From: a virus
Strand: one strand, 5' to 3'
Virus record (IMG/VR): IMGVR_UViG_3300027708_000024
DNA: 64,000 nt
Below the pieces are notes generated by a model. The model saw only the letters and a program-made list of their open reading frames with translations. It did not search any database and was not told the origin of the DNA. This document shows, piece after piece, positions 25,775 to 27,786 of the stretch (position 1 is its first letter; each line of letters opens with the position of its first letter). Made by a program: the position numbers and the translations under genes.

Positions 25775-26428
25775 ATGTTTACATATTGCACACCAAAAGA
25801 ACTTCAAGACTTACAATCTCAAACCTTTCCTGATGGAAAAAGATACTACAAGTTACCAGATGGCACTAAACTGCCATCGGTAACTACAGTCATTGGTGCT
25901 CAGAAAAAAGCAGCCATCATGGCATGGAGAAAGCGTGTAGGTGAAGAAGAAGCAAACAGAGTCTCTAAAAAAGCAACATCACGTGGTACTAATGTTCATA
26001 CTTTATGTGAGCGTTATCTCAACAACGATAAACTCGGTGATATCATGCCAGATGCTAAAGAGATGTTTATTGATCTAGTACCATTGTTAGATAGAATAGA
26101 CAACATACATTATCAAGAACAGGCGTTATGGTCTGTACAGTTAGGTCTAGCGGGTCGTGTTGATTGTATTGCAGAGTTTGATGGTGTGCTTTCTGTGATT
26201 GACTTTAAGACTTCAAAGAGAATCAAACAACGTGACGATATTCTAGATTATTTTTGGCAAGAAACTGCCTATGCGTTGATGTATGAAGAACTAGTTGGTC
26301 AACCAATAAATAATTTAGTTACGATTATGGCAGTCGAAGGTGCATCACCTGCTTTGTTTATTGAGAAAACTGAAGATCATATTGATGGTCTTGTGAATGC
26401 AATCAAATATTATAAGGAACAACAATGA
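25775..26428 (+). CDS. Cas4-like PD-(D/E)xK exonuclease
   Basis: RYY, PSVTTV, WRKRVGEEEAN, RGT.VH, AGRVDCIAE, IDFKTS, Q..AYA. Confidence 0.9.
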   Translation: MFTYCTPKELQDLQSQTFPDGKRYYKLPDGTKLPSVTTVIGAQKKAAIMAWRKRVGEEEANRVSKKATSRGTNVHTLCERYLNNDKLGDIMPDAKEMFIDLVPLLDRIDNIHYQEQALWSVQLGLAGRVDCIAEFDGVLSVIDFKTSKRIKQRDDILDYFWQETAYALMYEELVGQPINNLVTIMAVEGASPALFIEKTEDHIDGLVNAIKYYKEQQ

Positions 26429-27240
26429 AAAAATTATTAATTGGTTTGTTATTTGTATCATCATTTGCACACGCATGGACACAACGACCACCACAAAATC
26501 CACAAACATGTAAAGTACATGCACAATATGGATTTCCACAAACTACTGGTATACAACCAATCTGCCGTCAAGCATATCTTGTAGGTTATGATGCTGCTGC
26601 AAAACTACCAAAGTATGTAACATATCAATTGTTACCACAGAATGCAATTGGTTGTGTTGCACGTACCAATGCATTTGCTGCTGACCAATCTGTACCCAAT
26701 GGTGCAAAACCAGATGACTATGCAGGTACAGGTTACGATAAAGGACATATGGCACCTGATGGTGATTTGTCATGGGATACACAAGTAGAATTTGAATCGT
26801 TTCTAATGACTAACATGAGTCCACAAGCAGGATCATTGAATCGTGGTATTTGGAAACTATTAGAAACATCTGTACGTGGTTGGGCAGTACAATTGAATCA
26901 ACCATACACTGTTTACGTTGGTAGTTTATACAATGCACAAGATAAGAAAATTGGTAATGGTGTTGTTGTACCACACTCATTTTATAAGATTGTGATAAAT
27001 AATACTACAGGACAGGCAGCAGGTTGGATGTTTCCACATATTGCACCATACCCAAATCTAGGTAATGATTTGAATGCATTTCGTGCACCGATCATGACTA
27101 TTGAAAGTGCAGCAGGTGTTAAGTTTAGTTATCCAGCAAAAGTACAAGAACTACCAAAAGGTCAAATGTGGCCAGTAGATTTTGGTGCATTGACTAATGC
27201 CAAACGTGCCAAATGTGGTGCAAACGCAAAAGACGATTGA
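26425..27240 (+). CDS. Secreted DNA/RNA non-specific endonuclease (NucA/NUC1 family)
   Basis: Signal peptide MKKLLIGLLFVSSFAHA; GYDKGHMAP, SFLMTNMSPQ, LNRGIWKLLE, VP..FYKI. Confidence 0.9.
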   Translation: MKKLLIGLLFVSSFAHAWTQRPPQNPQTCKVHAQYGFPQTTGIQPICRQAYLVGYDAAAKLPKYVTYQLLPQNAIGCVARTNAFAADQSVPNGAKPDDYAGTGYDKGHMAPDGDLSWDTQVEFESFLMTNMSPQAGSLNRGIWKLLETSVRGWAVQLNQPYTVYVGSLYNAQDKKIGNGVVVPHSFYKIVINNTTGQAAGWMFPHIAPYPNLGNDLNAFRAPIMTIESAAGVKFSYPAKVQELPKGQMWPVDFGALTNAKRAKCGANAKDD

Positions 27241-27265
27241 CAGATAACAGTTGATGGTGTATACT
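27237..27265 (+). promoter_or_regulatory. Promoter of the tmRNA precursor
   Basis: TTGACA-17 bp-TATACT. Confidence 0.8.
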
Positions 27266-27271
27266 CACTAT

Positions 27272-27620
27272 TGACTTGAAGAATTGTTGTATGAAGTAGA
27301 ATGAAAGGTGTTCTGGACCCGGCTATCGTATGCCGGCATCTCCACCAAAAGGACTTTTATGTTTGAAAATTGGTATTGGATTTATATGTGGGGCATTTTA
27401 GTTACAGTGAACTATATGTTCTGGATTATAAAAAGTCTTTTTGATGGGGATGACAGGATTCGACAGGGCAATAAGTAAGGATATGGACAACACGGCAGAT
27501 GACGACCGTAAATCGCATAAAACTAGTAAATGCAAACGATGCATATTTTGGAGAAGAACGCCTAGCGGCTTAATTCTCTTGGGGTTTCGCAAGGTGTCCT
27601 TATTACCCAATCACCTTGCA
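27272..27620 (+). ncRNA. ssrA: Circularly permuted two-piece tmRNA; tag (A)ANDAYFGEERLAA
   Basis: Acceptor piece ends CCGGC-TATCGTAT-GCCGG-CATCTCC-ACCA at 27347. Coding piece starts GGGGATG..GGATTCGAC at 27446. The 7-bp acceptor stem has G3-U. Tag ORF 27532-27573; terminal pseudoknot 27579-27619. 5' end approximate. Confidence 0.93.
27359..27478 (+). CDS. 39-aa hydrophobic peptide starting in the tmRNA intervening sequence
   Basis: AAGGA SD; MFENWYWIYMWGILVTVNYMFWIIKSLFDGDDRIRQGNK*. Confidence 0.55.
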   Translation: MFENWYWIYMWGILVTVNYMFWIIKSLFDGDDRIRQGNK

Positions 27621-27711
27621 TTTTAATGGTTTTAATTATTACATTTGCGTTACGTTATGAATATATAATTATAGTCGTAGTATTTCGCTATGACACATCA
27701 AGGAGAATGAT

Positions 27712-27786
27712 ATGAAATGGACTACACCTTCAGCACAAGATATGCGTTTTGGTTTTGAAATTACACTTTATATCGCAAATCGCTAA
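27712..27786 (+). CDS. pqqA: Coenzyme PQQ precursor peptide PqqA
   Basis: AAGGAG SD; MKWTTPSAQDMRFGFEITLYIANR* with W..P and GFE-x3-Y core. Confidence 0.95.
   Translation: MKWTTPSAQDMRFGFEITLYIANR

Follow-up and report, generated by a model that had tools for sequence, protein, structure and literature searches.

A complete, circularly permuted tmRNA gene from a virus very probably holds a conserved gene for a small peptide within its intervening sequence, the spacer that is removed when the tmRNA matures. The spacer would then be a small messenger and a slot for small genes, and the peptide would be translated from the tmRNA precursor only. The locus lies in the IMG/VR virus record IMGVR_UViG_3300027708_000024, of which we have analyzed a stretch of 64,000 nucleotides (the window). 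Table 1 lists its features.

Table 1. Features of the tmRNA locus and its surroundings in the window (positions counted from the first nucleotide of the window)
Feature	Position	Strand	Evidence
DNA/RNA non-specific endonuclease gene, secreted type, directly upstream of the tmRNA promoter	26425-27240	+	Pfam PF01223, 141.6 bits
Sigma-70-like promoter, TTGACA-17 nt-TATACT	27237-27265	+	consensus match only, 11/12 positions
Circularly permuted (two-piece) tmRNA gene	27285-27573	+	Rfam RF04321 (tmRNA_permuted)
Acceptor piece: inter-piece helix strand, T-arm, acceptor-stem 3' strand, discriminator A27344, CCA 27345-27347	27285-27347	+	RF04321 model positions 1-63
T-loop, 8 nt	27323-27336	+	
Closing stem, 5' arm, contains SD AAGGA	27346-27358	+	13 pairs with 27431-27443
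Intervening sequence (spacer), 98 nt, not in mature tmRNA	27348-27445	+	insertion between the model's CCA and GGGG
SD of the peptide gene, AAGGA	27349-27353	+	
Peptide gene, 39 codons and TAA	27359-27478	+	sequence and comparison with relatives
Closing stem, 3' arm: codons 25-28 (K-S-L-F) and first base of codon 29	27431-27443	+	pairing
Coding piece, acceptor-stem 5' strand (GGGGATG) to end of tag frame	27446-27573	+	RF04321
Tag reading frame, 13 codons ending L-A-A, then TAA	27532-27573	+	sequence and RF04321
24-codon ORF with strong SD	27712-27786	+	Pfam PqqA, 35.4 bits (cut-off 21.1)

The tmRNA itself is well supported by covariance models. RF04321 matches it with 114.5 bits, against a gathering score of 47, and over the full model (positions 1-213). 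The beta_tmRNA model RF01850 also aligns with it full-length, at 27234-27625, which would place the end of the RNA at 27625; its score of 76.3 bits (E = 4e-23) is below the gathering score of 84. Since the tmRNAs of sister phages with the same peptide reach 113-134 bits with beta_tmRNA, the tmRNA of the window appears, by resemblance, to be of the betaproteobacterial type, though it stays under the curated RF01850 threshold. ARAGORN detected no tmRNA in the window, whereas Rfam did. The promoter-like site precedes the first position of the tmRNA model by about 20 nt. The acceptor stem has 7 bp (GGGGATG with CATCTCC), and the third pair is a G-U (G27448-T27341). The T-loop, TATCGTAT, is one nucleotide above the consensus length; relatives keep the usual 7-nt TTCGANT type. 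In the maturation of tmRNA, RNase P cuts just before the first G of the acceptor stem to give the 5' end, and tRNA-type 3' processing releases the CCA end. By this established route the RNase P site would fall between 27445 and 27446.

The ORF in the spacer was noticed in a first-pass annotation, made from the letters of the window. It had described a 98-nt spacer running from the CCA to the GGGG at 27446 and including AAGGA and an ATG at 27359, a frame for a 39-residue peptide with its stop 33 nt inside the mature tmRNA, and a stem in which the SD is buried. All of this anatomy is confirmed. The ATG lies 5 nt downstream of the SD, the frame translates to exactly the peptide described, its TAA (27476-27478) ends 33 nt into the coding piece, and the two arms of the stem form 13 consecutive pairs, one of them G-U. 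Codons 1-28 make up the conserved core of the peptide; in codons 29-39 the frame runs on through closing stem, acceptor stem and tmRNA body. Taken alone, the ORF of the window is not beyond chance: when the ATG is kept fixed and the interior is shuffled, 12% of the shuffled sequences have no stop before the spacer ends. Only the comparison with relatives makes the ORF significant.

Two other frames were considered and rejected. A longer version of the same frame would start at GTG 27308 (56 aa), but copies of the gene that lie outside the spacer begin at the ATG, and the sequences upstream of those copies are unrelated to tmRNA, which fixes the ATG as the start. A minus-strand ORF at 27398-27610 is overlap noise on the tmRNA.

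To collect relatives we used two scans. The first, of viral contigs, used only parts of the tmRNA (the 3' acceptor strand and CCA, a gap of 70-100 nt, and the start of the coding piece) and returned 120 loci, six of which, besides the window, have the same peptide in the spacer. The second searched for residues 1-12 with a degenerate codon pattern, so that codons 1-12 are ascertained, and the unbiased part of the family sample is codons 13-28 together with the six sequences of the tmRNA-only scan. The second scan found 37 viral loci, or 38 with the window, encoding 21 distinct peptides, with the frame intact in all; many of these loci are close relatives, and the counts are not independent events. 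The family, which we name MFENW here, has the core M-F-[ED]-x-W-x-W-x-Y-x-W-G-I ... N-Y-x-F. Ten columns of the alignment are invariant (M1, F2, W5, W7, Y9, W11, G12, I13, N18 and F21), and at the remaining positions I, V, L, A, F and M replace one another. The peptide of the window belongs to this family by its core, its N18 and F21, and the SD ahead of it.

The pattern of substitution in codons 13-28 is that of a protein. We observe a pN/pS of 0.32 in frame versus 0.70 and 0.87 off frame (from pairwise counts, uncorrected for phylogeny), and 15, 10 and 20 changes at codon positions 1, 2 and 3, so that third positions are the most variable. As an example, between the closely related L023 and L144 five of the changes are synonymous and the other two conservative. 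The first-pass annotation had suggested a test of whether homologous spacers keep SD and ATG in one frame relative to GGGG, with no stops; random frames and stops would have refuted its reading. The homologous spacers do keep the SD, the ATG and an open frame, and the changes in it are mostly synonymous or conservative; GGGG is entered in two frames. Judged by these comparisons, the spacer ORF is a genuine conserved phage peptide gene.

The family was also searched for in sequence databases. A profile of it compared with 5.8 billion proteins has 25 matches (best E = 3.5e-21), all of them unnamed, metagenomic and without a Pfam domain; with HMMER, run exhaustively on 1.84 billion representatives, only a few further short relatives came to light. 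The exact peptide pattern is absent from 185,579 prokaryote species, represented by one genome each. A tblastn search with the peptide in 50,697 GenBank phage records gives no match, so that no cultured carrier is known, and when the locus was compared with GenBank phages by blastn, the one match was to the pqqA ORF of phage Melnitz. The peptide of the window has no Pfam match at E <= 1 and no match in PHROGs; the sole PHROG match in the family is a weak one (E = 0.007), to a 33-aa relative from locus L124. Neither the protein atlas, where a 33-aa relative (P0002) was looked up, nor the cluster names gave an informative name or structure match.

The peptide gene occurs in three genomic contexts. 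In the first, that of the window, it is inside the spacer of a permuted tmRNA. With spacers of 97-98 nt the frame enters GGGG in phase 0, and the core is followed by K-S-L-F-D-G...; variants with spacers of 80 or 89 nt enter in phase 2, and there the core is followed by F-M-M-G-M.... In the second context (L124, L127/L133, L136/L146, L145 and L147) the gene precedes the tmRNA and has its own stop, 4-5 nt from the first base of a full permuted tmRNA (89-138 bits); its tail consists of K-S-L-F and then about five residues. In the third (L138 and L151) the gene is found without a tmRNA, with a different short tail and a protein gene directly downstream. Locus L151, of 10.4 kb, lacks a tmRNA altogether; locus L138 extends only 42 nt past the peptide gene. 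Overall, the copies outside the spacer end at an ordinary stop 2-9 residues beyond the core, and the tmRNA is tightly linked to the peptide gene in 36 of the 38 loci. That the peptide survives these changes of context is the strongest argument for a gene.

The ends of the gene are also of interest in themselves. Ahead of the tmRNA (L124:2416-2545, L143 and L138, plus strand) the peptide gene is bracketed by a direct repeat, AAGAGTAAG, with which both the upstream gene and the peptide gene end, and the 3' end of the peptide gene there (AGTCTTTTTGA) is identical to the right-hand end of the spacer slot. The bracketing repeat and the shared end suggest cassette exchange by short-homology recombination. 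In some metagenomic relatives (P0013, P0017, P0019, P0020, P0022, P0024 and P0025) the peptide frame is open as far as the stop of the tag frame, so that translation of the precursor would yield a peptide with the degradation tag attached (A-L-A-A or L-A-V ends).

The spacer is closed by a stem. Together with the acceptor stem it folds into a long hairpin that extends the acceptor stem, with -34.1 kcal/mol and z = -4.3 relative to 200 shuffles. Among 15 unique spacers of the family, 13 keep the closing stem at 12-14 pairs and the other two have one T-T mismatch. Compensatory changes are present, such as ACTTTT/AAAAGT in the window versus GTATAGT/ACTATAT in L007, or an A-U to U-A swap in six sequences. 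A similar stem (CAAAAG.../...CTTTTG) closes the non-coding spacers of the sister tmRNAs L127 and L136, in which the peptide gene is upstream; thus the stem belongs primarily to the tmRNA precursor, and the SD has been fitted into it. Where the peptide gene lies upstream of the tmRNA, its SD shows no clear masking (z of the fold between -0.9 and -2.4), which ties the masking of the SD to the spacer context and not to the gene. As the SD is paired once the precursor has folded, there may be little translation or none.

This peptide family is one of many that occupy such a spacer. We sampled tmRNAs with a spacer that starts CCA-WAAGG[AG], a pattern blind to ORFs, and obtained 44 unique spacers of 80-376 nt. 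In 43 of these there is a start codon +8 to +23 after the CCA (+8 to +15 in all but one), and the ORF reaches within 13 nt of GGG or beyond, save in the two-cassette spacer of L145; the exception is L213, with ATC where the other spacers have ATG. The probability of such an ORF in shuffled sequence is about 0.2-0.4 per spacer for those of 80-100 nt and goes down to at most 0.001 for those of 284-376 nt. The slot has a left end, CCA-WAAGGA-(5-7 nt)-ATG, and a right end, TCTTTWTGATGGG, which pair with each other, and the exchangeable genes between them have 22-101 codons. More than 15 unrelated families are found there: several hydrophobic peptides of 22-29 residues, a Cys-rich 38-mer, acidic helical 52-60-mers, and proteins of 68, 87 and 101 residues, of which the 87-residue one has a Pfam domain (PF03692, CxxCxxCC, 29.4 bits against a cut-off of 23). 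In all 11 slot loci checked, a permuted tmRNA spans the ORF, with 83-150 bits; 10 of these match the full model, and the match in L163 is cut by the end of the locus.

Termination in the slot is mostly internal. Of 22 other slot families, 17 have their stop within the spacer (12 use the TGA in TGATGGG, 1 nt before GGG, and five stop 12-13 nt earlier), and the remaining five read through, like the family of the window. An unbiased sample of 108 unique spacers of 70-100 nt contains the combination of SD, start codon and filling ORF 9 times, versus 3.9 +/- 1.9 in shuffles. As seven of these nine belong to the family of the window, coding spacers are almost restricted to the CCA-WAAGGA lineage and are not a property of all permuted tmRNAs. 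Within this lineage the spacer is, as its sequences read, a general slot for exchangeable small genes.

Some individual spacers are worth describing. At L195:2967-3227 (minus strand) the 87-codon ORF with PF03692, a zinc/iron-chelating domain, fills a 284-nt spacer, on a contig where more than 25 tRNA genes form an array. At L145:6930-7320 (plus strand) the 376-nt spacer has two tandem ORF cassettes, of 62 and 60 codons, each with ATAAGGAAGTTT ahead and AAAGTTTCTTTA or AAAACTTCTTTA behind; since a copy of the window's peptide gene lies 5 nt ahead of this tmRNA as well, there are three small genes on one tmRNA gene. The 142-nt spacer of Melnitz (L002:1565-1706; MZ577097 46077-46218) contains GGAG and an ATG, from which a basic frame of 54 codons runs in phase into GGGG. 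We do not count it as support, because a tblastn search with this frame finds only four near-identical Melnitz isolates.

What the peptide of the window might do has to be read from its composition. The core is rich in Trp and other aromatic residues, with four Trp codons in 28. AlphaFold2, given the family alignment, predicts one helix over residues 3-29 (pLDDT 77-92) and assigns low values to the tail (54-57). The Kyte-Doolittle maximum over 19 residues is 1.39, under the usual transmembrane threshold of 1.6, and a rough estimate on the octanol scale strongly favours the membrane. A membrane peptide is plausible on these predictions. Its role could be that of a small membrane-inserted phage accessory protein, for instance in the host envelope, in exclusion or in lysis timing, which is a guess from composition only.

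We propose that the peptide would be made only from the nascent or unprocessed tmRNA precursor. A ribosome would load before the 3' arm of the closing stem has been transcribed, or where the stem is open; later, the SD would be locked in the 13-bp stem. Cleavage by RNase P before G27446 would separate the frame from its stop, and a ribosome that reads to 27478 would have to unwind the acceptor stem, so that one molecule could be either translated or matured. The 11-residue tail from the body of the tmRNA would be an unselected by-product of the frame that is tolerated. The first-pass annotation had proposed a precursor of dual function in which translation and maturation compete. The first half of this proposal stands, as the segment lost on maturation does contain a conserved gene; mutual exclusion of translation and maturation would follow from the anatomy of the locus.

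The same annotation went further and proposed that the excised spacer is a non-stop message and itself a tmRNA substrate, which would give a feedback loop on the peptide. If the lack of a stop were a designed feature, ribosomes would run off the cleaved spacer, the tmRNA of phage or host would tag the peptide for degradation, and the level of the peptide would then report the activity of tmRNA, as ArfA does in E. coli. All 15 unique spacers of the family are indeed without an in-frame stop before GGG, in both frames, five other slot families read through as well, and with the stop 12-70 nt inside the mature RNA the RNase P cut would necessarily part ORF from stop. Against this, two of the three frames are open across TGATGGG, so that read-through in two variants has a chance probability of about 0.44, and the SD-burying stem survives the RNase P cut (its 3' arm ends 2 nt before), so that new initiation on the cleaved spacer would be disfavoured. 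Moreover, the tail has neither conserved length nor conserved sequence and is read in two different frames, copies of the gene ahead of or without a tmRNA end at ordinary stops, and termination inside the spacer is the rule in the other slot families (17/22). These observations do not support a designed feedback, and we consider it unlikely. Just as doubtful is the bolder version in which the missing stop is functional, such that the balance of maturation and trans-translation would set how much peptide is released and how much is tagged (a self-referential sensor), and spacers would offer small effectors a slot of "one pioneer round only".

Two further explanations do without a functional peptide. 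In one of them the ORF is a cis-acting leader whose translation would open the closing and acceptor stems and time or throttle maturation; its Trp codons might sense translation capacity, and the peptide would be irrelevant. The ORF does overlap both arms of the stem and the acceptor stem, and both the density of Trp codons and the linkage to tmRNA (36/38 loci) would be expected of such a leader. However, G12, I13, N18 and F21 are as invariant as the Trp residues and the substitutions are conservative, unrelated genes of up to 101 codons take the same slot, and the peptide is kept ahead of the tmRNA or, in L151, without one, where an effect on the spacer is impossible; we give this explanation very little credence. 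In the other, the ORF is an untranslated relic, conserved by RNA structure or by recent common descent. A paired SD, a well folded spacer hairpin (z = -4.3) and a single-sequence ORF probability of about 0.12 would all agree with it, and there is a precedent in the S23p ORF of Coxiella, which is apparently not made in vivo (PMC4990558). A relic would not be expected to have an in-frame excess of synonymous change, or to keep its ORF through length changes of 9, 10 and 19 nt and in three contexts with unrelated flanks. Nor would it explain that the stem arms covary while the core of the peptide is constant, or that ORFs fill 43 of 44 slots, one of them with a Pfam domain. A relic is thus highly improbable, and a peptide gene translated from the precursor is the reading that we prefer.

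The surroundings of the tmRNA bear on the host. The DNA of the downstream PqqA ORF is 84% identical to a stretch of Methylophilales phage Melnitz, where a hypothetical protein has been annotated on the opposite strand; no further pqq gene is seen near this ORF. On the other side, the gene of the PF01223 endonuclease is preceded by that of a PD-(D/E)XK nuclease. From the beta-type tmRNA and the adjoining PqqA gene we infer that the host may be a methylotrophic betaproteobacterium.

Few stable RNAs have been studied as well as tmRNA, and in two-piece tmRNAs the intervening sequence has been treated as disposable. If it carries genes, then annotation pipelines that mask tmRNA genes would miss a class of phage small proteins. 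The locus would also be a natural case in which protein synthesis and the maturation of a stable RNA are mutually exclusive on one molecule. In addition, the combination of promoter, SD within a stem, and RNase P cut would be a compact natural cassette for the study of the expression and exchange of very small, often membrane-active phage genes, one in which the ArfA-like non-stop idea becomes directly testable.

How does this compare with known systems? The locus has the organization of the permuted tmRNAs of betaproteobacteria and aquatic phages (RF01850, RF04321), namely acceptor piece, CCA, spacer and coding piece, with the third pair G-U and a tag ending L-A-A, and like them it has an intervening sequence that is closed by a stem and removed on maturation. 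The paper on Melnitz counts 53 two-piece phage tmRNAs among isolate genomes and mentions no ORF in the intervening sequence (PMC9004378), and for intervening sequences the 2025 tmRNA database paper gives only a tRNA-Ala gene and a repetitive element (PMC11915505). In the literature we found no description of a protein gene in a tmRNA intervening sequence. Whereas the spacer of known permuted tmRNAs is described as discarded, here it has a conserved protein gene and is an exchangeable slot.

The nearest analogue in arrangement is the intervening sequence of the Coxiella burnetii 23S rRNA, whose ORF, S23p, is apparently not made in vivo (PMC4990558). There too an ORF lies in a stem-closed segment excised from the precursor of a stable RNA; the difference is that excision is by RNase III and there is one ORF family, versus many unrelated cassettes here. 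S23p has no sequence relation to the peptide of the window (no Pfam match at E <= 1). Group I introns in the T-loop of tmRNA, some with genes for LAGLIDADG homing endonucleases (PMC11915505), are alike in having a protein gene nested in the part of the precursor that is removed. Those introns are self-splicing and mobile, with an ORF that aids its own spread, whereas here there is no intron fold, processing is of the tRNA type, and the ORFs are tiny and unrelated to nucleases.

In its proposed logic the peptide gene would be closest to arfA. There, a processing cut in a hairpin parts the stop codon from the ORF, and the product is a tmRNA substrate; here, by analogy, the stop would likewise be parted from the ORF by a processing cut. 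Unlike in arfA, the cut would be made by RNase P and the ORF is on the tmRNA precursor itself. The arfA message is made non-stop by RNase cleavage and repressed by trans-translation (PMC10107115).

Finally, there is a likeness to RNAs of dual function. The comparison with type I toxins (Hok/TisB-like) found no Pfam or PHROG match, and what is shared is a small hydrophobic peptide and a masked SD only. In SgrS/SgrT, RNAIII/hld and hok, one transcript is a functional RNA and also encodes a small, often hydrophobic peptide, and in hok the SD is masked by pairing between both ends of the message, much as the SD of the window gene is masked by end-to-end pairing. The peptide of the window differs from these in being encoded in the discarded part and not in the functional RNA. 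By its arrangement the locus belongs with other protein-coding sequences that lie in the excised segment of a stable-RNA precursor, here that of a tmRNA.
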